Origin: Dehalococcoidia bacterium
GTDB lineage: Bacteria; Chloroflexota; Dehalococcoidia; SM23-28-2; RBG-16-64-32
NCBI GenBank assembly: GCA_040882565.1
Contig: JBBEAZ010000024.1
Coordinates: forward strand, 105,662-169,661
DNA: 64,000 nucleotides
Direction: 5' to 3'
Position numbers and translations under genes: made by a program. Below the pieces are notes generated by a model. The model made no database searches, was not told the DNA's origin, and worked only from the letters and a program-made list of their open reading frames with translations. Positions 39,292 to 49,908 of the stretch are shown in pieces. Positions within the stretch are counted from its first letter, which is position 1, and every line of letters starts with the position of its first letter.

Positions 39292-39546
39292 GGCCTTCGC
39301 CGGCGACCATGCCCCCGCGTATGGCCGGTCAGGCGTTGCCCGCGTGCTGCAACTCGGGGGTTAAGTGTCTCCACCAAAAGGTCTTTGGCAGCCAAGGAGC
39401 GTTGGTCTCGCCGCTTGCCGCCCTGATCGCGTCATTGTCAGCGTGCTCGCGGAGTGTGGATCGAAATCCTTGCTCCAGCGTATGGAACCTCCGCTTCACG
39501 GCGGAACGCACATTCGGGCCACCGGGTGCCCGCTGGCTTCCTGTCG

Positions 39547-39771
39547 CTAGACAGGCAGTTGCTTCCTGGGCTGACAACGCGGCGGCATGGCAATGATAGC
39601 AATTGCTTCTCGTCCAGCTACTACTTCTGATAACCGCCCTTGAACCGTGGGCAGATCCGGTGAGGCTGCCTTGATGAAGTCGACGTCCCTGCAGAACTCC
39701 GCTCGGTAGTTGTCGAGCTTAGCAACCGACTCTTCAATTGTGCATTCAAGAGGACCCCAGACCCAACTCAT
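39547..39771 (-). CDS. cassette ORF 1, hypothetical small protein (74 aa)
   Basis: Low-GC ORF starting at Met 39771, directly downstream of repeat R1. Confidence 0.4.
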   Translation of the reverse strand: MSWVWGPLECTIEESVAKLDNYRAEFCRDVDFIKAASPDLPTVQGRLSEVVAGREAIAIIAMPPRCQPRKQLPV

Positions 39772-39786
39772 GTCAACATTGACTCC

Positions 39787-39865
39787 ACCACAAACCCGCC
39801 ACCGCCTTGCTCGATGGCGAACGCGCCATCCGTGGTCTGCCACGCCCCGCAAACTTGCGTCTTGT
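39787..39865 (+). repeat. cassette-array repeat R1 (slightly 5'-truncated copy)
   Basis: ACAAACCCGCCACCGCCTTGCTCGATGGCGAACGCGCCATCCGTGGTCTGCCACGCCCCGCAAACTTGCGTCTTG. Contains the hairpins GATGGCG/CGCCATC and CGCAA-ac-TTGCG. Confidence 0.8.
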
Positions 39866-39957
39866 CGCAGGTCTCGCGCCCCGTCGTGCGCTCCGTCTGC
39901 AACCGCGGCCGACGACGCGGTTCATGGCCGCGATTGTGGCCACGTTGGCTCGCACGT

Positions 39958-40350
39958 CTAGGCGATGGGCGTGCCGTGCGTGGCACTGCGATTGTAGGCA
40001 GCATCTCGCCTGCGCTTGGTCGAGAGGATCCCTCCCACGAGCCCATGTAAGAACGCGCCGACAGGAAAGACAATCCACGCAGCAACGAAGATGGGTCCCC
40101 CGAAAAAGAAAAGCGGCTCGGTGGCAAGAACGACCATGGTGGCCGATATTCCAAGCAGCGTCCCCACAGGCAAATTTCTGGTCGACGCGAGAAGAAGACC
40201 CACCAGCCAACCGCCAATCCAAGCTCCAACGAAAGGAACTTGGAGAAACCACGGCATTACAGCAATCACGAATGCTATCAACAATCCGATGATGCAGAAA
40301 AGTATGAACGTGCCCAGTCCGTATTGATGAGCCGCGCGAGCCATAATCAC
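39958..40350 (-). CDS. cassette ORF 2, four-TM membrane protein (130 aa)
   Basis: Hydrophobic segments FILFCIIGLLIAFVIAV, VGAWIGGWLVGLLLA, etc. Confidence 0.5.
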   Translation of the reverse strand: MIMARAAHQYGLGTFILFCIIGLLIAFVIAVMPWFLQVPFVGAWIGGWLVGLLLASTRNLPVGTLLGISATMVVLATEPLFFFGGPIFVAAWIVFPVGAFLHGLVGGILSTKRRRDAAYNRSATHGTPIA

Positions 40351-40380
40351 AGTTTACCTTGGGGCGGGTTTCGCCCCCCT

Positions 40381-40470
40381 ACTCGAACGCCCCATCCACG
40401 ACAAACCCGCCGCCTTGCTCGATGGCGAGCGTGCCATCCGTAGTCTGCCACGCCCCGCAAACTTGCGTCT
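40381..40470 (+). repeat. cassette-array repeat R2
   Basis: ACTCGAACGCCCCATCCACGACAAACCCGCCGCCTTGCTCGATGGCGAGCGTGCCATCCGTAGTCTGCCACGCCCCGCAAACTTGCGTCTCG. Confidence 0.8.
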
Positions 40471-40486
40471 CGTGCGCGCCACGCTG

Positions 40487-40732
40487 TCACACGACCGCCC
40501 ATACATTCGCTGCGACCGCCGCAGTTCCGACAAGCAAGAACGATCCCGGCATGATCCAGCGGGCATAGCGACGCCACAGGTCACGTCGTCGCTTCTGCTC
40601 GTCGGGAGGTAGCTGTGGGGGAATAATTGCAGGATTCTTCAGCGTGGAATCGGCCACGATGTCAAAGATGGGCTTCACAGCAGTTAGCAACCCGGCTGCG
40701 ATGAAGCATGCCCCCAATATCAGCATCACCAT
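40487..40732 (-). CDS. cassette ORF 3, two-TM small membrane protein (81 aa)
   Basis: MVMLILGACFIAAGLLTAV .. SFLLVGTAAVAANVWAVV. Confidence 0.45.
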   Translation of the reverse strand: MVMLILGACFIAAGLLTAVKPIFDIVADSTLKNPAIIPPQLPPDEQKRRRDLWRRYARWIMPGSFLLVGTAAVAANVWAVV

Positions 40733-40736
40733 TGCT

Positions 40737-40830
40737 TCCCCCTACTCACGGCCCACCCACGACAGACCCGCCACCGCCTTGCTCGATGGCGACCGTGCCA
40801 TCCGTAGTCTGCCACGCCGCGCAAAGCTTG
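40737..40830 (+). repeat. cassette-array repeat R3
   Basis: CTCACGGCCCACCCACGACAGACCCGCCACCGCCTTGCTCGATGGCGACCGTGCCATCCGTAGTCTGCCACGCCGCGCAAAGCTTGCG. Confidence 0.8.
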
Positions 40831-40839
40831 CGATCGGAT

Positions 40840-41328
40840 CTAGAACGGGCACTCAGGAACCTCGGTCAGTAGCCACGAACCGTCGTCCTGGCGTGCCACA
40901 CCCCACTCATAGGCAACCGTCTTCACATTGGCACCAGCCCTCGCGACGAACTGTCCGCGAACGACCGCCTCGCCATCGCGCCCCGGAGTGATCTCCGCGG
41001 GGTCGTCTAATTCGATGCCTGCACCCACGGGAGCACACCCAACGAAGGAGGAAAGCTGATCGTCCTCAATTCGGTCGTCAATTAGTGGCCGAAGCAAGCG
41101 CTCCGACGGAATGAAAGCCCTGTTCATCACATCGCTAACGAGAGAGTTGATGTCCTCTTCGTCCCTCTGAGAAAGCAAAGTGACACCCGGAGTTGCCGTT
41201 GGGTCAATCCGCACGGGCGACGTTTCCGTGAAGGTGTCGGAGAACTGAACGTCCGTTCCAGCGGACAGCAAATACAGCACGATCAACGCGACTACTATAG
41301 CTACAACCAGAAATACGATCTTTCTCAT
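40840..41328 (-). CDS. cassette ORF 4, secreted/membrane-anchored protein (about 162 aa)
   Basis: Start ATG 41328 (MRKIVFLVVAIVVALIVLYLL signal-anchor). Confidence 0.5.
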   Translation of the reverse strand: MRKIVFLVVAIVVALIVLYLLSAGTDVQFSDTFTETSPVRIDPTATPGVTLLSQRDEEDINSLVSDVMNRAFIPSERLLRPLIDDRIEDDQLSSFVGCAPVGAGIELDDPAEITPGRDGEAVVRGQFVARAGANVKTVAYEWGVARQDDGSWLLTEVPECPF

Positions 41329-41354
41329 GTGCAAATCAGAAAGTCCGACGAATC

Positions 41355-41455
41355 ACCCCTACTCGAACGGCCCATCCGCGACAAGCCCGCCGCCGGCTTG
41401 CTCGATGGCGAACGCCGCCATCCGTAGTCTGCCACGCCCCGCAAACTTGCGTCTC
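41355..41455 (+). repeat. cassette-array repeat R4
   Basis: CCCCTACTCGAACGGCCCATCCGCGACAAGCCCGCCGCCGGCTTGCTCGATGGCGAACGCCGCCATCCGTAGTCTGCCACGCCCCGCAAACTTGCGTCTCGG. Confidence 0.8.
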
Positions 41456-41785
41456 GGTGCGGGTCGCGGTTCCCGAACCCAGCGGCGGCCACCATCGTTG
41501 TCCTAGCAACCGTGCGCGCCTTCCATCCACAGCCTCGCCACTGGTCCGTCTTGATGTCAGCTCTCGTGTCGTTCGCCTTGGCGATGGCGCTGATGAGTTT
41601 CACGTACTTAGTGGTGCTCGCAGCAAACGAGTTTGCCAGCACGCCTACCTCGTGTGATCGGAGATGGGCGGGGCTTCCAGACCCGAGCACGAGCATCGCA
41701 TCCGAATATGTGAGGGAATTTAGCGAACTTGATAAGGCGGGCTGCAGTCCTCGCTCCTATTTCTACTGATTCAAACTGAACCATT

Positions 41786-42154
41786 TCACGATTCGCGGCC
41801 TTCGTTCTCCTTGGTCCATATCGCGTTCATCACCGCCATGCCGTGATCTGTGATGGCGAACTCGACAAACTCATGATCTGGTGACTCTGAGCCAGCCCAA
41901 TTATCCGGATTCGCGAGGACATCATTGATGTCTTCGGCGGGGATCGGTCGGGCGTCGGATGGGTCGTGTTTCGCAAAGACCAGCCTGACAAGTCCTTTGG
42001 CAAGGAGGCTCTGTAGCGTTGGTTCAGTTGATCCGCTGACCTCGACTCCAGTGGGAGAGAGCGTGATCGTGAAACTGGGGTTGAACTCCTGAAGGCCAAA
42101 CGAGTCGTCGTACGAAATTTCTAACAGGGCCCGTTCCTGATCCGTCAGATCCAT
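41786..42154 (-). CDS. cassette ORF 5, soluble hypothetical protein (about 122 aa)
   Basis: Start at Met 42154 (MDLTDQERALLEISYDD..). The upstream part of the listed ORF merely translates repeat R5. Confidence 0.45.
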   Translation of the reverse strand: MDLTDQERALLEISYDDSFGLQEFNPSFTITLSPTGVEVSGSTEPTLQSLLAKGLVRLVFAKHDPSDARPIPAEDINDVLANPDNWAGSESPDHEFVEFAITDHGMAVMNAIWTKENEGRES

Positions 42155-42198
42155 CACGCAGCGATTATAGACTTCACGCCGCGCGCGCCGACGGCTCG

Positions 42199-42290
42199 CC
42201 ACTCGACGGCCCACCCACGACAAACCCGCCACCGTCTTGCTCGATGGCGGACGTGCCATCCGTAGTCTGCCACGCCCCGCAAACTTCGCC
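42199..42290 (+). repeat. cassette-array repeat R5
   Basis: CCACTCGACGGCCCACCCACGACAAACCCGCCACCGTCTTGCTCGATGGCGGACGTGCCATCCGTAGTCTGCCACGCCCCGCAAACTTCGCC. Confidence 0.8.
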
Positions 42291-42312
42291 TCGTTGAGCG
42301 CGTTGGGTCGTC

Positions 42313-42760
42313 TCAAGCCAACGCGAAACGAGGGACGGCGTGGCCAACTTGGCGCAATCTAAGCAAGAGGTGGTCGCGGTTCGGGGGTTGCGCGTGCAAT
42401 GCGAATCGCAGCCTTCCGGGTCGGGAACCGCGATAACGCACTCCTTCAAGAGCGAGAATCGATAAGACCTCCATGAATTGCCGGAAGCGATCCCGGTCGG
42501 GAAGAAGCCTGTCCGCGTCCGAAACGAGTGCCACGTATTGGGAAGCTGGCAGCCAACTGAGATCCCTCATCCAATCTACGAGCGAATTCCAATTGTTGCT
42601 GACGGTCGGGAAATCGAATGCGAAGCTCCAAGCAGCCAGAAGGGCATCCTCGTCATCTCCGCTATCGCCAGGTACGGTTCGAACAACCAAGTCTGCTGCT
42701 GGCTGCGCCTCAAGAAAGCGATCCAGCTGACCGCGACTGCCCACCAAGACACTGAGCCAT
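42313..42760 (-). CDS. barstar-like (barnase-inhibitor family) putative immunity protein. Start codon uncertain
   Basis: LVVRTVPGDSGDDEDALLAAWSFAFDFPTVSNNWNSLVDWMRDLSWL follows the barstar pattern (.. F.FP.Y.G.N.DAL.D.L.DL ..). The N-terminal part of the listed 208-aa ORF overlaps a partial repeat copy. Confidence 0.5.
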
Positions 42761-42875
42761 GGCGCTTCAGGTGCGAGAAGCGTCGCCCAGCTGATCTTCG
42801 GGTCTTCTTGAACCGTCAATTGACTAGCAGTCCTGAGTGAATGCGTCACCCAATATACACGCGTGGGGCCATCCC

Positions 42876-42905
42876 TAGCCGGCCCGCCCATCCACGAAGG
42901 AAAGA
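42876..42905 (+). repeat. partial cassette-array repeat copy R6'
   Basis: GGCCCGCCCATCCACGAAGG resembles the CGGCCCATCCACGACAA block of R2-R5. Confidence 0.4.
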
Positions 42906-42949
42906 GCGGGCCCGATGGCCCGCTCTTAATGCCAAACACAGGGTCTGGT

Positions 42950-44479
42950 CTAGAAATCTTCGTCCAGTTCCGCTTCGTCCACGTCAGCCTCGTTCTCCAC
43001 GAACAAGGCGAACACGCGATCGAATGAGTCGCGGCTGAGAACCGGCTTAGCGCCGTCGAAACTCGCGCTCTCGATCAGGATCTCCACGAGGTCGCGGGCG
43101 TAGCTCGCCCTGGGCTGCAGGCCGGGCTCGTCGTAAATCTTGCGCACCGCGTGCTCGATCGCGTCATCTTCCACCGGAACGTGCTTCGTGCGGCACTCGC
43201 GGCGCATGATCTCCCCGAAGTTGGCCTCGTCCGGATTGGGCATTCGCACCTTGTAGAGAATACGCCGGAGCAGCGAGTCGTCGGCGACGTCGCGGACCCG
43301 CGCGTTCGTGCCGAACAACAGCTGCAAGCGGAACGGCACCGTCAGTTTCTCGCCGGTGGCGAGGCTGAGCGAGTCCCAGCCGCGCTCCAGCGGGATCAGC
43401 CAGCGTGTGAGCAGGTCGGTCGTCGTTACGCGCTGCCGGCCGAAGTCGTCGACGATCAACGCGCCGTTCTGCGCCTTGATGTGCGCCGGCGCCTGGTAGA
43501 ACTTTGACTGCGGGTCGTAGCCCAGGTCGAGGGCGTCGCGGTCCATCTCCGCGCCGAGTATGATAGCCGGCCGCTTCACCTTGACCCAGCGCCTGTCCAG
43601 AAGCGAGTCGTCCTTGAACGAGCTTGAGTCCTCGTTCTGGTCCGGCGTCTCAAGCGGCTGGTGGATCGACGCGTCGAACACGCGGATCACCTGCCCGTAG
43701 GCGTAGATCGCGTAGGGCATCACGGAGTGGCCTTCCAGTGCCTTCGCAAAGCGTTCGAGGACGACGGTCTTCCCGTTGCCCGATGGCCCGTAAAGCAGCG
43801 TCGTCTTCCCCGAATACAGCGCCCGCGCTGTCGCGTCCGACACCTCACTTGTCAGGACCAGGTCCTTGAGTGCTTCTGTGATCTCGTTGCGGCTGACGGC
43901 CGGCTTCTCTTCGAGCAGCTTCGTCATCACCCGCGTGTATTGTTCGGCCGTCACCGGTGCCGGACCCGCGTACCGCGTGCGCTCCAGCGCTTCCGCTACC
44001 CGCGTCTGTCCGCGCTCCGAAAGGCGGTAGCGGTAGTTGCCGGTGTAGAGGTCAGACTGGCTCAGGATGTCCACCAGCCGCTCTTCCTGAAGCGCCTGCA
44101 GAATCTGTCCCACGATCTCCGTGTGCAGGCCCAGGCGCTTCGAGAGCTGCGCCAATGAAGGCGTGCCCGAGTAGTGCATGATCTTCATCGTCAGGTCCGT
44201 CAGGAACGCCTTCGAAAGACCAACCTCAGTGAACGTCCGTGGCGCGTTGGGGATCAGACCTTCATCCGCCGGGTCGTCTTTGTCCGCGACCGTGGCCATC
44301 GTCCGCGAGATGAACTGCGACATGGAATCGCTGTGTTGCTCCTCCGGCGCTGCCGACCCCTCGCGGGCGAAGAGCGACGGCACGTAGCCGCCATTCATCA
44401 CGCCGCCGGGCGGTCCGCCTGGGGCGGACTCGCCTGCGACGTCCGGTTCATCGTCTCGGAACACTGGTTCGGTCTCCAT
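42950..44479 (-). CDS. AAA+ ATPase with an N-terminal winged-helix domain and an acidic C-terminal tail; function unknown
   Basis: 509 aa. The wHTH region is PSLAQLSKRLGLHTEIVGQILQALQEERLVDI. Walker A is LYGPSGNGKT. Walker B is ALIVDDFGRQ. The sensor-1 region is LLFGTNAR. The C-terminus is ENEADVDEAELDEDF. Confidence 0.8.
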   Translation of the reverse strand: METEPVFRDDEPDVAGESAPGGPPGGVMNGGYVPSLFAREGSAAPEEQHSDSMSQFISRTMATVADKDDPADEGLIPNAPRTFTEVGLSKAFLTDLTMKIMHYSGTPSLAQLSKRLGLHTEIVGQILQALQEERLVDILSQSDLYTGNYRYRLSERGQTRVAEALERTRYAGPAPVTAEQYTRVMTKLLEEKPAVSRNEITEALKDLVLTSEVSDATARALYSGKTTLLYGPSGNGKTVVLERFAKALEGHSVMPYAIYAYGQVIRVFDASIHQPLETPDQNEDSSSFKDDSLLDRRWVKVKRPAIILGAEMDRDALDLGYDPQSKFYQAPAHIKAQNGALIVDDFGRQRVTTTDLLTRWLIPLERGWDSLSLATGEKLTVPFRLQLLFGTNARVRDVADDSLLRRILYKVRMPNPDEANFGEIMRRECRTKHVPVEDDAIEHAVRKIYDEPGLQPRASYARDLVEILIESASFDGAKPVLSRDSFDRVFALFVENEADVDEAELDEDF

Positions 44480-44597: not shown

Positions 44598-44617
44598 TTT
44601 GTAATTTTCGGCACAAA
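44598..44617. promoter_or_regulatory. putative Rex operator (inverted repeat TTGTAA-N6-GCACAA) in the rex promoter region
   Basis: TTTGTAATTTTCGGCACAAA sits in the AT-rich stretch about 90 nt upstream of rex. It resembles the Rex box consensus TTGTGAA-N4-TTCACAA with mismatches. Confidence 0.3.
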
Positions 44618-44706: not shown

Positions 44707-45339
44707 ATGGAAATACCGCCAGTCGTCATCGACCGCTTGCCACTCTACGCGCGCGCCCTCGCCGCCCTCGAGTCCCTGGGACGCGAAGTCGTCAGCTCCC
44801 AGGAACTGGGACAGCAGCTCAACGTCACGCCCGCCCAGATCCGCAAGGACCTCAGCTATTTCGGGCGTTTCGGCAAGCAAGGCCGCGGCTACAACGTCCG
44901 TAAGCTGCTGGAAGAGCTGCGCAGCATCCTCGGGCTCAACCGCCAGTGGCGCATGGCGCTCGTCGGCACCGGCCGCCTCGGCCGCGCGATCCTCGGCTAC
45001 GAGGGCTTCGCGCCGCAGGGCTTCCGCATCGTCGAGACGTTCGACTCGGACCCTCAGTGGATCGGCAAGGCGGTCAACGGCCTGACCATCGCCAGCACCG
45101 ACGACCTCGAGACGATCCTCGGTGGGGATCCCGTTGACATCGGCATCGTCGCCGTCCCCGCCGAGACCGCCCAGCAAGTGATCGACCGCCTCGTGCGCTG
45201 CGGCGTCCAGGCGATCCTCAACTACGCCCCCATCGCCGCCCACGTCCCGCCCAACGTCCACATCAAGCGCATCGACCCGGTGCTGGCGCTCCAGGGGATG
45301 ACGTACTACCTCAAGGCGGACGCAGCTTCGCCCAAGTAA
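44707..45339 (+). CDS. rex: redox-sensing transcriptional repressor Rex
   Basis: The N-terminal wHTH has IRKDLSYFGRFGKQGRGYNV. The Rossmann fold has ALVGTGRLG and a CoA/NAD-binding C-terminus. Confidence 0.85.
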   Translation: MEIPPVVIDRLPLYARALAALESLGREVVSSQELGQQLNVTPAQIRKDLSYFGRFGKQGRGYNVRKLLEELRSILGLNRQWRMALVGTGRLGRAILGYEGFAPQGFRIVETFDSDPQWIGKAVNGLTIASTDDLETILGGDPVDIGIVAVPAETAQQVIDRLVRCGVQAILNYAPIAAHVPPNVHIKRIDPVLALQGMTYYLKADAASPK

Positions 45340-45487: not shown

Positions 45488-46138
45488 TTGAGTGGATCCC
45501 TCGATCACGTAACAACGATCCGCGGCCGCTTTGTCGAATTGCGGCCGATCAGCCGCGAGGACTATCCCACCTTATTCCGCTGGCGCTCGAGCTTCAGCAC
45601 GATCCACGCCCTTAACTTCCGGCGCAGTGTTTCCACGTACGAGGAGTTTGTCCGCGAGTTGGAACAGATGCTCCCGAACGTGATCCTTCTCCTGATCCGC
45701 GATCGCAAGACCGCCGCGCCAATTGGTTACACCCTCGGTTACAACATTCAGCCTTGGGACCGATACATGGGCGGCTCGATCTTCATCGAGCCGGGCCGCC
45801 GAATGCGCGTCTACGGCGGCGAAGCGCTTGTTCACTCCATCGATTTCTTTTTCTCCCTCTTCCCCATCAACAAGATCGTGGTTGAGCCATACGAATTCGC
45901 GACGACGCTCCGCGCGATGCTGGAAAGAATGGGCTTCGAGGAGTGCGGCGTCTACACCGACCATTACTGGCACGACGGCAAAAGTTGGGCGCTCCACGTC
46001 ATGGCGCTGCACCGGGAGCGGTGGGGGATAGAGCGAGAGAGGTACTTGAGTCTGATCGATACGGAAAACTTCCTCTCCAGTCATGACGAAAACGGCGCCC
46101 GTGGAGATGATCAGATCGGAAGTGAGGTCGCTATATGA
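45488..46138 (+). CDS. GNAT family acetyltransferase (RimJ/RimL-like)
   Basis: 216 aa. FVELRPISREDYPTLFRW ... acetyltransferase core. Confidence 0.7.
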   Translation: MSGSLDHVTTIRGRFVELRPISREDYPTLFRWRSSFSTIHALNFRRSVSTYEEFVRELEQMLPNVILLLIRDRKTAAPIGYTLGYNIQPWDRYMGGSIFIEPGRRMRVYGGEALVHSIDFFFSLFPINKIVVEPYEFATTLRAMLERMGFEECGVYTDHYWHDGKSWALHVMALHRERWGIERERYLSLIDTENFLSSHDENGARGDDQIGSEVAI

Positions 46139-46779
46139 TGAAGCAAGGGCTGGTCTTGGTCGGCGGAACCGCAGCGGTTGCCCTCCTGATCTTCCTAATC
46201 CTGACGGTGGGTGGAGTCGACTTGCGTGAAGAGGGAACCGCGCAGGAGTCGGGGGGATTCACCGGGGACTTACTAATTTGGAGTGGACGCCAGGAACTCG
46301 CAGTGTGCGTTGAGGTCGCTGGATCCGCGAAGAATGAACAACAGGTCGTCGCAAGCGAGGCCGTCGAATCCGTATCGCCAGCCTTGCTGATTGTGAGCCA
46401 GGACGAGGCATTCACGGCCTCCGAGCGACTTCAGACGGCGGCCAGTTCGGTCGTCGTCGAAGCAGAGTGCCCTGGAGATGCCCAACTCGATTGTCCAGCG
46501 TATCCGTACGACCCGCCAATATTGTGCCCGGACGGCTACGAGATAGTGAAGGAGCCAAGTAAGTACCGGGTCTTCGTCTACGTGGTTTCCGATGCAGATC
46601 TAGAGCAGATCCTTGGCGGCGCGACTCAGCGTCGGGGTGGCGGAGAACACTTGTGCAGCGGAGACAGTTGCTCGGAAGTCACGTCGGCGGTGTATGTGAG
46701 CGTTAACGAATTGAACGACACCCAAGTACTGGCTGGCATACTCCGTGAGGGACTTGGGTTTGGCGGTCACAGGGAGTGA
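46135..46779 (+). CDS. hypothetical secreted/membrane-anchored Cys-containing protein
   Basis: ATGA overlap with the GNAT stop. Signal-anchor LVLVGGTAAVALLIFLILTV. Confidence 0.55.
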   Translation: MMKQGLVLVGGTAAVALLIFLILTVGGVDLREEGTAQESGGFTGDLLIWSGRQELAVCVEVAGSAKNEQQVVASEAVESVSPALLIVSQDEAFTASERLQTAASSVVVEAECPGDAQLDCPAYPYDPPILCPDGYEIVKEPSKYRVFVYVVSDADLEQILGGATQRRGGGEHLCSGDSCSEVTSAVYVSVNELNDTQVLAGILREGLGFGGHRE

Positions 46780-47639
46780 CGCCACGGGAAACCTCCCACC
46801 AATGGCGCATCGTGCGCGTGGCTTTAAGCGCGGCCGTCGGTACCACGCTTGCTTTGGCAGCCCGGCTCGCGACCTCTGAACCCGGGAAAGCCAGTCACCC
46901 CTACTGGTTTCCAATCCAAGATCCTGGGCACATAGAGTCCATCAACTTTTCCGACATACCGGAAGCGGTCTGCGTCGATATCCAGACACAGCCGGCCATT
47001 GACTATCAGACCGCGTGGTACAGGATTGGGGATGCCCTCTACTACGCTGTACCTGACGGCGAGGATAGCTGGGACGGGCTTAACAACGACAAAATCAACT
47101 TCACATTTGCCCACCATAAAGAATATGAGATGCTCGGGCAGGGCTGCTTCGCCCCCCCGCCGGCCGACCCCTTGGTTTGGGAGATCCGAATCGCCGTTAA
47201 GGATGACGTGACGAGCAACTGCAACGGAAACTCTCGGGGATGCGCGTTTCGGAACGGCCCCATGTACGGGGACCCGTCGACTTCTGGGCACTCCTATGGC
47301 GAATACCAGAACAGTCAAATCTACATCGCGACAGGCGAGCTTCTAAGTGACTCCTACCTCTTCATAATAAATCATGAGGTCGGTCACGCGCTTGGTCTGG
47401 CCGACGGCGGGCCCGACGCGCCCGATGAACAGAACGCGAATGGTACTCAAATTCCCTTGCCATCCCAAACACAGAATCCATTGTCCTGCTCACCAATTAG
47501 TATCATGCATGTCTACGGTTGCGATGAGACGGACTGGCCGTCCGCAGTTGACAGGGCGGCCCTCGAGTTTCACATTCCCAACGGGCAACCGGCCGGCGGT
47601 GGGGGCAGTGGAGCCACCGCCAACAAGGGGTTCTTCTAG
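46776..47639 (+). CDS. secreted zinc metalloprotease (HExxH zincin)
   Basis: HEVGHALGLADGG is an HExxHxxGxxD-type motif. N-terminal signal-like region. Confidence 0.75.
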   Translation: MTPRETSHQWRIVRVALSAAVGTTLALAARLATSEPGKASHPYWFPIQDPGHIESINFSDIPEAVCVDIQTQPAIDYQTAWYRIGDALYYAVPDGEDSWDGLNNDKINFTFAHHKEYEMLGQGCFAPPPADPLVWEIRIAVKDDVTSNCNGNSRGCAFRNGPMYGDPSTSGHSYGEYQNSQIYIATGELLSDSYLFIINHEVGHALGLADGGPDAPDEQNANGTQIPLPSQTQNPLSCSPISIMHVYGCDETDWPSAVDRAALEFHIPNGQPAGGGGSGATANKGFF

Positions 47640-47643
47640 ATAC

Positions 47644-49908
47644 ATGAGAGTATTGATCGGCGCCCTCGCCGTAGTTGCCGCTCTTGCCGCTCTTACGCTA
47701 ATCACGTATCGCGAAGCCTTCGCCGCAGGCACATATGGGCCTACTCTAACCGTCGAACACTGCAACGGCCTCGCTGCCAACTTCCCCGCGAGCGGGACCT
47801 CAACTGATCCCGACCTTGCCGGCAACCCATCGTGCACCACCGGTGCCACTCCGCTTGCGTTGAACACCGCAACAAACTTGACGTTCAAGCAAGCGGTGCC
47901 CATTGGCCACATGAATCCTGGCACGGCTCTGTTCGTGACCGGGCCCGGTGACGATTACGTGGCGCCGGACGCATCAATTGCGAACGGAACCAAGGCTGGT
48001 GGCGTGACGGCCACCATGACCATCAGCGTGGCAAATGGCGCGTGCTCGACAGCGATCAACGTAGATTACATCCTCTACGAATCAACGACCAGCAACTCTG
48101 TGCTCATCGATCCGTTGGACCCAGGCACCGCCGACCACCTCTCGAACCTCGCCACGGATTCCGGCTTGGATGGATTCGCCGACTACAATTCGCCATTCCG
48201 CAACTCCAACCCGAGCTTTTACCCTCCCATCTTTGACCCCGATTTGGACGCCTTACTGGGGATCAACGGCCCAGTTGCGCCCTTGCTACCAATCGCACGT
48301 TATACGGGCATGTCGCGTGTCATTCCTACCGGGTCCGGGGAGTGGTCGATGCTTTCTGTTTTCGTCTTCAACAGCAGCGCTCTCGCCCCGTTCGCCGCCT
48401 ATGAACACAATATTCCTCATTCATTCTCCCGTCTTGGCCGTTCGCCGGCCGACGGGCGTGTCTACTTCGCGGTTTTTGACGATCCGCTCGAAGCAGCTTA
48501 TGGGCAGTCGAGGCTCCTCGAGACGTGCAGTCCGCTTACCACCACAGCGATGCTTCTCGGCACCCTACCGAATGCCGAGGTGCGCGCGCGAACGCCAACG
48601 ACTTCAGGGACGCGTGCGTATAGCGCGTGGAGCTACAGCGCCCGCAACGCCGACAGCGACACGCTGGACAATTGGCTCGACAGTTGCCCGCTAGTCGCCA
48701 ACGCCGGTACCGACGCAGACAACGATGGCATCGACGGCGCGTGCGATCCCACACCTTCCGTCAACACCGGCTTCGGCGACCACGACGGCGACGGCTTCAA
48801 CAACCGCGAAGACAATTGCCCGCTAGAGGCCAACTGGCCGCAGTCCTCGGAGCGCGAGGGCGAGATGTACTACATCACCACCGCCCCGGACGGCGGCCCC
48901 CGCGGCGACGGCATCGGCAACCACTGCGACCCGCACCAGTTCAACGGTTACTCGGAGGGCGATTTCATCGAAAGCTACGTCATGGTGCCCAAGTGCTTCG
49001 GCGGCACAGACGGGGACGGAGATCGCTACTGCTCTACGCAGGACCTCAACGACAGCAGCGCCTCGACGCCCGGCTACACGCTGAACAGGGGCCCCGACAC
49101 GGACGGCCTGCCCATCGGCGATGGTCATGGCTCAAACCTGGAGAAGTACGTCGGCACCGATCCGCTCAAGGCTTGCAACAAGACCACGGCAACTGATGAT
49201 GAATCAGCGGGCGCGGACGCCTGGCCGGTGGATCTCAACGACTCAGGGCACGTCAACATTACAGACATACTCGGGATGAAGCCGTTTATCGGTTCGGCGG
49301 TGCCGCCGAACCAGCGCTATGACATTGTCCCGAGCAAGACCATCAACATTCAGGACGTGCTCGCGATAAAGCCTTCAATCGGCTTGACGTGCGGGATTAC
49401 AACCAGGATCGATGCTGAAATTGCCTACGAGATTGCGAACGCAGCAACGTTGATCGGCTCCCCCGAGACGTGCACGGAGATGAACGTTGGCAACAGCATC
49501 CAAATTGATATCACAGCGAGCGCGATTCCGGCCTATACCGGTGGCCAAAACGGCCTCACCGGCTTCGAGTTCACGTTCAAGTACATCAGCAGCAAAATCA
49601 AAGTCACCGCGCTCGACGTCGACCTGCTTCTCAAGGCGAACCTGAACTCCAGTCTGCTCAGCATCGGCGACGCTCCGCCGAATACTGACGGCACGTTCTT
49701 CGTCTCAGTGGGCGATATTGGCACTGGGCAGCCGGAACAGGGCGCCGGCGTATTGGCCCGCATCACCGTCGAGGCGCTGGCCTCAGGCACTACAGCGGTG
49801 GAACTCACCAACATGGTCCTGACCGGAAGGACGGTGGGCGGCGGCGACTTCGAATACCCGGCGCGGGCCGTCAACGCGAACCTGGCCATCGGCACCACCT
49901 GCCCCTAG
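47644..49908 (+). CDS. large secreted protein with thrombospondin type-3-like Ca-binding repeats and C-terminal dockerin-like / beta-sandwich regions
   Basis: The start was set at ATG 47644 (MRVLIGALAVVAALAAL signal). The longer listed ORF from 47374 overlaps the previous gene in a different frame. The TSP3-like repeats are DADNDGIDGACD, DHDGDGFNNREDNC and GDGIGNHCD. Dockerin-like pairs are DLNDSGHVNITDILGMKPFIG and TINIQDVLAIKPSIG. Confidence 0.8.
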   Translation: MRVLIGALAVVAALAALTLITYREAFAAGTYGPTLTVEHCNGLAANFPASGTSTDPDLAGNPSCTTGATPLALNTATNLTFKQAVPIGHMNPGTALFVTGPGDDYVAPDASIANGTKAGGVTATMTISVANGACSTAINVDYILYESTTSNSVLIDPLDPGTADHLSNLATDSGLDGFADYNSPFRNSNPSFYPPIFDPDLDALLGINGPVAPLLPIARYTGMSRVIPTGSGEWSMLSVFVFNSSALAPFAAYEHNIPHSFSRLGRSPADGRVYFAVFDDPLEAAYGQSRLLETCSPLTTTAMLLGTLPNAEVRARTPTTSGTRAYSAWSYSARNADSDTLDNWLDSCPLVANAGTDADNDGIDGACDPTPSVNTGFGDHDGDGFNNREDNCPLEANWPQSSEREGEMYYITTAPDGGPRGDGIGNHCDPHQFNGYSEGDFIESYVMVPKCFGGTDGDGDRYCSTQDLNDSSASTPGYTLNRGPDTDGLPIGDGHGSNLEKYVGTDPLKACNKTTATDDESAGADAWPVDLNDSGHVNITDILGMKPFIGSAVPPNQRYDIVPSKTINIQDVLAIKPSIGLTCGITTRIDAEIAYEIANAATLIGSPETCTEMNVGNSIQIDITASAIPAYTGGQNGLTGFEFTFKYISSKIKVTALDVDLLLKANLNSSLLSIGDAPPNTDGTFFVSVGDIGTGQPEQGAGVLARITVEALASGTTAVELTNMVLTGRTVGGGDFEYPARAVNANLAIGTTCP

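Follow-up and report, generated by a model that had tools for sequence, protein, structure and literature searches.

A conserved winged-helix AAA+ ATPase of the Dehalococcoidia and the large unnamed family to which it belongs

The stretch of DNA analysed here (64,000 nucleotides of contig JBBEAZ010000024.1, from a Dehalococcoidia bacterium; hereafter the window) carries on its minus strand, at 42950..44479, a gene for a 509-residue protein in which a winged helix precedes an AAA+ ATPase core. This open reading frame (ORF) is a genuine gene and one of the core genes of the Dehalococcoidia, in which it is strongly conserved; it was neither brought in with the repeat array beside which it lies nor is it dedicated to that array. 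Judged from sequence, its product belongs to a large bacterial AAA+ family for which neither Pfam nor NCBIfam has a model, comprising hundreds of clusters at 50% identity in at least nine phyla. As to function, the reading that we prefer, although we would put its chances at about even, is that the Dehalococcoidia protein is a housekeeping hexameric AAA+ without a protease, whose task would be to remodel a protein partner or to act on it as a switch.

The gene and its place in Dehalococcoidia genomes

The ORF runs from an ATG to the stop codon at 42950-42952, and this start is backed by the N-terminus METEP or METD..., which is kept in close homologues. The protein is 100% identical to hypothetical protein WD904_04385 of a Dehalococcoidia metagenome-assembled genome (MAG; GCA_040876785.1) and has at least 120 full-length homologues, at 56-79% identity (56-100% when the identical protein is included). 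All named sources among the listed homologues are Dehalococcoidia or Chloroflexi. A tblastn search within the window found no paralogue of the ATPase and no Tad or Clp genes.

The neighbourhood is conserved along with the gene. In the orthologous loci (L001-L008, 55-100% protein identity) the ATP synthase operon, murA and mreB are followed by a variable stretch, then by rex, the divergent ATPase gene, and a convergent hydrolase gene together with an LLM oxidoreductase gene. The rex gene lies upstream and divergent in all eight of the orthologous loci having upstream sequence (8/8), and the convergent hydrolase follows the ATPase in six, L003, L005, L006 and L007 among them. In the window, rex occupies 44707..45339 on the plus strand and encodes a redox-sensing repressor recognised by the Pfam domains Put_DNA-bind_N and CoA_binding. 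The divergent intergenic region between rex and the ATPase gene holds a candidate Rex operator, TTGTGCCGAAAATTACAA (44599-44616, minus strand). Nowhere else in the 64 kb window is TTGTG-N9-ACAA matched (0.14 matches would be expected by chance), and the block around TTGTGCCGAAAATTACAA is conserved in L003 and L005. The Rex consensus is TTGTGA-N6-TCACAA. It is plausible that TTGTGCCGAAAATTACAA is a Rex operator, and the ATPase gene is probably under Rex control.

Domain architecture, predicted fold and closest structures

The architecture was read from an AlphaFold2 (AF2) model built on a 53-sequence alignment (mean predicted local distance difference test score, pLDDT, 85.6; predicted template modelling score, pTM, 0.79), which replaced an earlier run on 28 close homologues with a poor ATPase core (pLDDT 66). 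Core residues were judged across 43 diverse members of the family, A2 being the family-wide alignment. An earlier note on this DNA, made from the letters alone, had listed the motifs GPSGNGKT, hhhhDDFG and FGTN and had placed a TrmB/MarR-like winged helix ahead of the AAA+ core; all three motifs are present in the ORF, and the winged helix is borne out by the AF2 fold of residues 83-167 and by a weak match to TFIIE_alpha, itself a winged-helix family (E=0.0025). That note had also been unable to assign the protein to a named AAA+ clade, and this holds at the level of families. In Pfam the ATPase matches AAA_16 below cut-off, no NCBIfam model comes near its cut-off, and searches of the PDB with the whole protein, as a single sequence or as a close-family profile, gave P-loop-level matches at best and nothing specific. 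When the diverse profile A2 was run against the PDB, midasin, spastin and p97 were matched, but through the Walker A region only, and were rejected.

Reading from the N-terminus (all features of the gene being on the minus strand), residues 1-50 form a predicted disordered extension rich in Gly, Pro and Glu (44330..44479; pLDDT <50 at residues 1-4, 8-35 and 37-50), which holds a short conserved motif, VPSFF, and is restricted to the Dehalococcoidia subfamily in alignments A1 and A3. The winged helix (residues 83-167, 43979..44233) is predicted with the order H-H-H-beta-beta-H at pLDDT >90. Its third, 'recognition' helix (residues 120-132) is acidic and hydrophobic and is devoid of conserved basic residues family-wide in a per-column charge analysis, K99 and R160 being the only conserved basic residues of the whole winged helix, which weakens the case for sequence-specific DNA binding, for which a winged helix of the MarR/TrmB type would present a basic or polar recognition helix and wing. 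In the model a linker joins this domain to the AAA+ alpha/beta domain (residues 195-415, 43235..43897).

The Walker A motif (GPSGNGKT, residues 231-238, 43766..43789), read from the sequence and the alignments, has G231, G234, G236 and K237 invariant in A2 and N235 invariant in alignments A3 and A4, and nearly so in A2. Between it and Walker B the model has a beta-rich insert of about 80 residues (about 256-335, 43475..43714) in the place of helix 2, and this insert defines the family: it carries the motifs GQxIRVFDxxxH, DxRW..RP and YxAP..KA.GG, with D269, H273, R297 and P304 invariant in A2 and D295 and P331 nearly invariant. Conservation of a YAYG motif within it (residues 259-262) is confined to the Dehalococcoidia subfamily. 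Walker B (ALIVDDFG, residues 340-347, 43439..43462) has Asp, not Glu, as its second acidic residue; D344, D345 and G347 are invariant, as are R348 and Q349 directly after the motif, and R359-W360 are among the invariant or nearly invariant residues. A pre-sensor-1 beta-hairpin is predicted at residues 368-382 (43334..43378), its strands 368-372 and 378-382 preceding the sensor-1 strand 386-391 in a part of the model with pLDDT >90. The segment from sensor 1 (FGTN, residues 389-392) through R405-R406 spans 43262..43315; T391 and N392 are nearly invariant, and of the two candidate arginine fingers R405 is invariant family-wide and R406 invariant in A3 and A4 and nearly so in A2. The helical lid (residues 416-504, 42968..43234, AF2 helices 418-504) contains a conserved R462-D463 pair (within ARD in the window ATPase and within PRD in the consensus of the family) as candidate sensor 2. 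The hallmarks of the AAA+ superfamily are thus all found (GPSGNGKT, IVDDFG, T391-N392, R405-R406 and R462), in a core that is invariant or nearly so across the 43 members, and the predicted hairpin would place the protein in the pre-sensor-1 hairpin superclade of HslU-, ClpX-, Lon- and RuvB-like ATPases.

A Foldseek search, one of the checks that the earlier note had proposed, agrees with this placement. The top match is Pyrococcus furiosus Q8U0N8 (8P49, E 4e-15), followed by LonB, RuvB, a sigma-54 activator and ClpB, and the nearest characterised folds are LonB, RuvB, the second nucleotide-binding domain of ClpB (ClpB-NBD2) and HslU. A profile of the region from the insert to sensor 1 had 8P49 as its sole match in the PDB (E=7.3e-6), and 8P49 shares with the window ATPase the insert motifs VLIP..LE..IIRxFD..xHE and YxAPL.L+A.GG; the relationship is therefore likely to be one of homology and not of generic AAA+ similarity. 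Structure 8P49, obtained by cryo-electron microscopy, is a hexamer with a flexible N-terminal domain and an AAA+-like ring, without a Pfam assignment and, like the window protein, uncharacterised, so that it offers a precedent for quaternary structure and not for mechanism. The two proteins also differ in several respects: the archaeal one is 14-15% identical, shorter (about 380-400 residues) and without the disordered N-extension or the acidic tail, and its Walker B region aligns to ...LILTE, the DDFGRQ block being missing.

The next solved relative is LonB of Thermococcus onnurineus (3K1J/4ZPX), from the HslU/ClpX/Lon/RuvB group that shares the predicted pre-sensor-1 hairpin. Both LonB and the window ATPase have extra sequence between Walker A and Walker B, the place where archaeal LonB has its membrane anchor, but the insert of the window protein is soluble and beta-rich. 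Lon further differs in having no N-terminal winged helix and a Walker B of the DE type where the window protein has DD. The window ATPase has no Ser-Lys protease domain, ending five residues past the lid helix, and no Lon_C match was found in it with either Pfam or NCBIfam. Sequence similarity to Lon was not detectable, spore_lonB being matched at E=0.0035 by one relative only.

The protein ends in an acidic tail (ENEADVDEAELDEDF, residues 495-509, 42953..42997). Over the last 15 residues the net acidic charge is at least 3 in 107 of the 120 close homologues, with frequent DFDD, DEDY or DEDF ends and a terminal aromatic residue in only 23; in the wider family the tail is absent and the median net charge is 1. 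By these statistics the tail is specific to the Dehalococcoidia subfamily. The earlier note had likened it to the protein-interaction tail of the single-stranded DNA-binding protein SSB, and some of that likeness stands: the SSB acidic tip, DDDIPF, and the ATPase tail are both short, strongly acidic and disordered, the latter (...ELDEDF) has an aromatic terminus, the closest relatives of the window ATPase end in DEDF, DEDY, DFDD or DYDD, and the acidic composition is conserved in the subfamily. The likeness has its limits: the window ATPase has neither the DDDIPF motif with its Pro-Phe tip nor an OB (oligonucleotide/oligosaccharide-binding) fold, the tail motif varies among orthologues, and the wider family lacks it. 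The resemblance is compositional.

The protein could be conceived of as an ATPase of the initiator clade, a loader like DnaC, IstB or Orc, with the tail contacting the replisome or SSB-interacting proteins; the DDxG-like Walker B and the TN of sensor 1 both resemble, in sequence, the corresponding motifs of DnaC and IstB, and the acidic tail has its terminal aromatic residue. We consider this quite improbable. In the established classification of AAA+ proteins the initiator clade lacks the pre-sensor-1 beta-hairpin that is predicted here, matches to TniB and Hda cover the P-loop only, 8P49 and LonB match the fold better, relatives of the protein occur in Tad or Clp contexts and not with replication genes, and most family members have no such tail.

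The repeat array and the variable flanks

The earlier note had seen the ATPase at the head of an array of repeats and had put it forward as a candidate recombination or regulation factor for that array. The adjacency is physically real, the first ORF of the array starting less than 60 nucleotides from the ATPase stop codon, but a conserved terminator-like hairpin parts the two: it lies at 42902-42927 (minus strand), 23 nucleotides past the stop codon, and has an 11-bp perfect stem (AAGAGCGGGCC/GGCCCGCTCTT) and a 4-nucleotide loop. L003 and L005, whose ATPases are 70% and 68% identical to that of the window, have an equivalent GC-rich hairpin separating their convergent genes, and it marks the ancestral end of the ATPase transcription unit. 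In these two loci a spacer of about 50-60 nucleotides leads directly to the convergent alpha/beta-hydrolase and LLM oxidoreductase genes, the very genes that in the window stand beyond the array, and there is no array. Because the spacer in L003 and L005 holds the hairpin only, the array is to be seen as an insertion between the ATPase terminator and the hydrolase gene, a strain-specific one of about 3.6 kb made up of small ORFs and repeats (39292..42901, minus strand).

Nor does the array travel with the family elsewhere. The repeat core is absent from all of the other fetched loci that carry family members (84/84), and in metagenome contigs of the Joint Genome Institute (JGI) a 40-nucleotide repeat pattern gave 0 matches and a 22-nucleotide core a single one (L086), which we rejected as a chance match since its flanks do not align. 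No integrase family match is on record among the genes called up to 10 kb on either side, and the repeats show no attC-like folding. The conserved linkage to repeats, or the integrase with attC sites, that would mark a factor associated with an integron or cassette array is accordingly wanting. The earlier note had itself named the lack of conserved linkage as the finding that would tell against its suggestion, and we give next to no credence to an ATPase dedicated to the array. As regards the other part of that statement, orthology to a housekeeping ATPase, the orthologues are conserved, but no named housekeeping ATPase is among them. A false lead is thereby removed, and the ATPase should not be used for interpreting the array, which is an independent insertion.

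As for the array itself, its five direct repeats of about 95 nucleotides lie at 39776-39883, 40384-40491, 40748-40825, 41367-41475 and 42206-42313, each downstream of a small minus-strand ORF, in a layout resembling that of a cassette array. The ORFs encode a Barstar-domain protein, a 176-residue protein and three products with hydrophobic stretches (putative membrane proteins). A classical attC/integron reading of the repeats was tried and rejected, single-strand folding giving z-scores of +0.06 to -1.2, and an Rfam scan of the repeats gave no match. The ORF with the Barstar (barnase-inhibitor) domain was called at 42313-42939 on the minus strand (Pfam E=3.6e-9). Its mechanically called GTG start at 42939 would put the ATPase terminator hairpin inside the ORF, and the likelier start is the ATG at 42891 (192 residues), as called on contig L002. 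Its immediate neighbourhood yielded no gene for a barnase-like toxin.

A second strain-variable block (45488-49908, plus strand) lies on the other side of the pair, between rex and mreB. It encodes a GNAT acetyltransferase and the products of two ORFs without a Pfam match, one of them with a zinc-protease-like motif, HEVGHALG. The long ORF at 47374-49908 (844 residues as mechanically called, 754 in L001 and L002) has Asp-rich motifs, DADNDGIDG and DHDGDGF, resembling calcium-binding repeats. In L003 and L005 only one or two small ORFs are found between rex and mreB. With a variable block on each side, both flanks of the rex-ATPase pair are insertion hot spots.

These flanking islands bear on another suggestion of the earlier note, that of a stand-alone defence ATPase. 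Such an ATPase could be directed against phages or plasmids, in the manner of IetA/IteA or McrB. There is also a weak PADLOC match to IetA (E=3.7e-4, residues 171-249 only), an NCBIfam IteA score of 18.4 bits, somewhat higher but still partial IetA/IteA scores for some relatives (up to 33 bits), and a match to a PHROG of unknown function (E=5e-6). The scores, however, fall short of the 510-bit IteA cut-off by a factor of 15-30 and come from short segments in the P-loop or sensor-1 region (the P-loop region in the window protein); there is no partner in the form of an IetS-like protease or a nuclease, the neighbours being rex and the Barstar-domain ORF; and the fixed synteny, the 56-79% identity and the uniform presence across many Dehalococcoidia are those of a core gene and unlike those of defence cargo carried on an island. 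A defence function therefore seems highly improbable.

The wider family and a possible role

When 1.84 billion cluster representatives were searched with a profile, 3202 members were returned at E<1e-3 and 704 at E<1e-30; they share a core that corresponds to residues ~80-497 of the window protein. In a scan of GTDB species genomes, members were found in Chloroflexota, Acidobacteriota, Gemmatimonadota, Desulfuromonadales (Geobacteraceae, Geomonas) and Myxococcota, and further ones in Nitrospirota, Armatimonadota, Melainabacteria and Elusimicrobia. The names that cluster members bear at present ('hypothetical protein', 'predicted ATPase with chaperone activity', 'ArsR family regulator') are uninformative.

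Several members are fused to input domains: FHA, for phospho-threonine, in P0150, P0177 and P0181, HDOD in P0262, possibly PAS in P0212 (a weak match), and, in a member from Geomonas paludis, an MshEN motif for cyclic di-GMP (c-di-GMP; 58 bits against a cut-off of 38). FrgA of M. xanthus was tried, with PA3740, as a characterised MshEN-fused relative and was rejected, being listed as MshEN-UNK-HEAT and not as a member of this AAA+ family. Gene neighbourhoods point to two further associations. Tad genes (T2SSE/T2SSF) occur within the fetched flanks of 20 of the 80 loci, in most of which the ATPase gene comes last after secretin, TadG, TadZ/CpaE, TadA/CpaF, TadB and TadC genes, with a 4-nucleotide overlap onto tadC in L039, L042 and L052; and in nine of the 80, all from Anaerolineae, it follows tig-clpP-clpX, a slot usually held by lon. 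The Myxococcus Kil/Tad paper mentions no winged-helix AAA+ component of this family, and a literature search joining the Tad pilus to a winged-helix AAA+ ATPase found no papers.

Other contexts were met with in smaller numbers. The MshEN-fused gene of G. paludis (L077, NZ_BLXY01000003.1, 252-12638) stands between two clusters, with divergent Tad genes (secretin, RcpC/CpaB, TadE) and a sigma-54 activator upstream and an extracellular contractile-injection-system cluster (Pvc16_N, sheath, tube) downstream. A Ser/Thr protein kinase gene lies directly upstream in Chloroflexaceae (L016, 4112-5689; L029, 4366-5946) and a gene for a receiver-domain protein directly downstream in Aggregatilineales (L033, 7259-8296); in line with the FHA fusions, these neighbours suggest a phospho-signalling input to the family. 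Tandem duplicates in Desulfuromonas sp. and in Chloroflexota MAGs (L055, 4333-7257; L084, 3049-5811; L056, 412-3920) hint at possible hetero-oligomeric rings. A subgroup of about 50% identity and 481-495 residues (L087, 8001-9476; L088, 8001-9446) has a different, internally conserved context, its neighbours being PGA_cap, a sigma-70 region-4 protein with a weak match to zf-HC2 (anti-sigma-type), and a CoA transferase.

The fusions and the winged helix together make up the case for the main rival reading, that of an ATP-dependent transcription regulator whose winged helix binds DNA and whose AAA+ ring provides oligomerisation or a nucleotide switch, by analogy with enhancer-binding proteins such as FleQ and VpsR or with Orc/Cdc6-type proteins. 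MshEN, FHA and HDOD would then act as gates in other phyla, and in the Dehalococcoidia the protein might control neighbouring envelope or energy genes. Besides the fold of residues 83-167, one-component regulators typically have a sensor fused at the N-terminus, JGI annotators named some members ArsR- or PadR-family regulators, and a position at the end of a Tad operon, or divergent from Tad genes as in L077, would suit a dedicated regulator. FleQ and VpsR are likewise modular, with an input, an AAA+ and a helix-turn-helix (HTH), and the c-di-GMP-binding MshEN motif of some family members adds to the likeness. In this family, however, the HTH precedes the ATPase, there being no C-terminal HTH, and no Sigma54_activat match and no GAFTGA loop were found in the window ATPase. 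The recognition helix, acidic and hydrophobic, is nowhere in the family conserved as basic, surface conservation is highest on the beta-rich insert in the ATPase, not on the winged helix, and in fold the protein comes closest to 8P49 and LonB, not to enhancer-binding proteins. We therefore regard a regulator as unlikely, but as an alternative that deserves to be kept in mind.

Under the preferred reading, of a protease-less housekeeping remodeller or switch, the protein would assemble as a hexameric ring like that of 8P49, its only solved relative, the ring being Lon-like, with a pre-sensor-1 hairpin but wanting the protease domain. ATP binding and slow hydrolysis would drive the remodelling or gating of a protein partner; the invariant DD of Walker B (in place of DE) and the conserved arginine pair would fit such slow, switch-like hydrolysis. 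The winged helix, the disordered N-extension and the acidic tail may be docking modules for partners, and the winged helix not a sequence-specific reader of DNA. The same module would in other phyla be wired to MshEN, FHA or HDOD inputs, to Tad operons or to the 'lon slot', and the Dehalococcoidia version would be stand-alone, housekeeping and probably Rex-controlled.

A number of points weigh against this scheme. The remodelling mechanism is drawn from fold analogy and from gene neighbourhoods that differ between clades, and the hexamer precedent comes from 8P49, itself uncharacterised, and not from the window protein. No aromatic pore-loop motif is evidently conserved, YAYG being kept in the Dehalococcoidia subfamily alone. 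A transcription regulator, too, would be expected to have a winged helix beside an AAA+ domain and N-terminal sensor fusions. The neighbourhood of rex, mreB and murA offers no direct functional partner, and the evidence for the Rex box is one motif match that departs twice from the consensus given above.

The analysis brings out a large AAA+ family that has been overlooked by curation, and among whose relatives only one, an uncharacterised archaeal hexamer, has been solved. The possible translational coupling to tadC in Tad operons, the fusions with c-di-GMP, FHA and HDOD modules, and the position after tig-clpP-clpX suggest a regulated accessory ATPase of the envelope or proteostasis machinery. 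More tentatively, and with rather less confidence than we have in the reading of the Dehalococcoidia protein by itself, the family may represent a widespread unnamed class of hexameric ATPases, related to Q8U0N8 and Lon but protease-less and defined by the winged helix and the beta-rich insert, that would serve as signal-gated accessory motors or switches and of which the Dehalococcoidia form would be a Rex-linked factor recruiting partners through an SSB-like tail. That the gene is so highly conserved among the Dehalococcoidia suggests that it is important to the cell, in a class of bacteria that is poorly understood and mostly uncultured.

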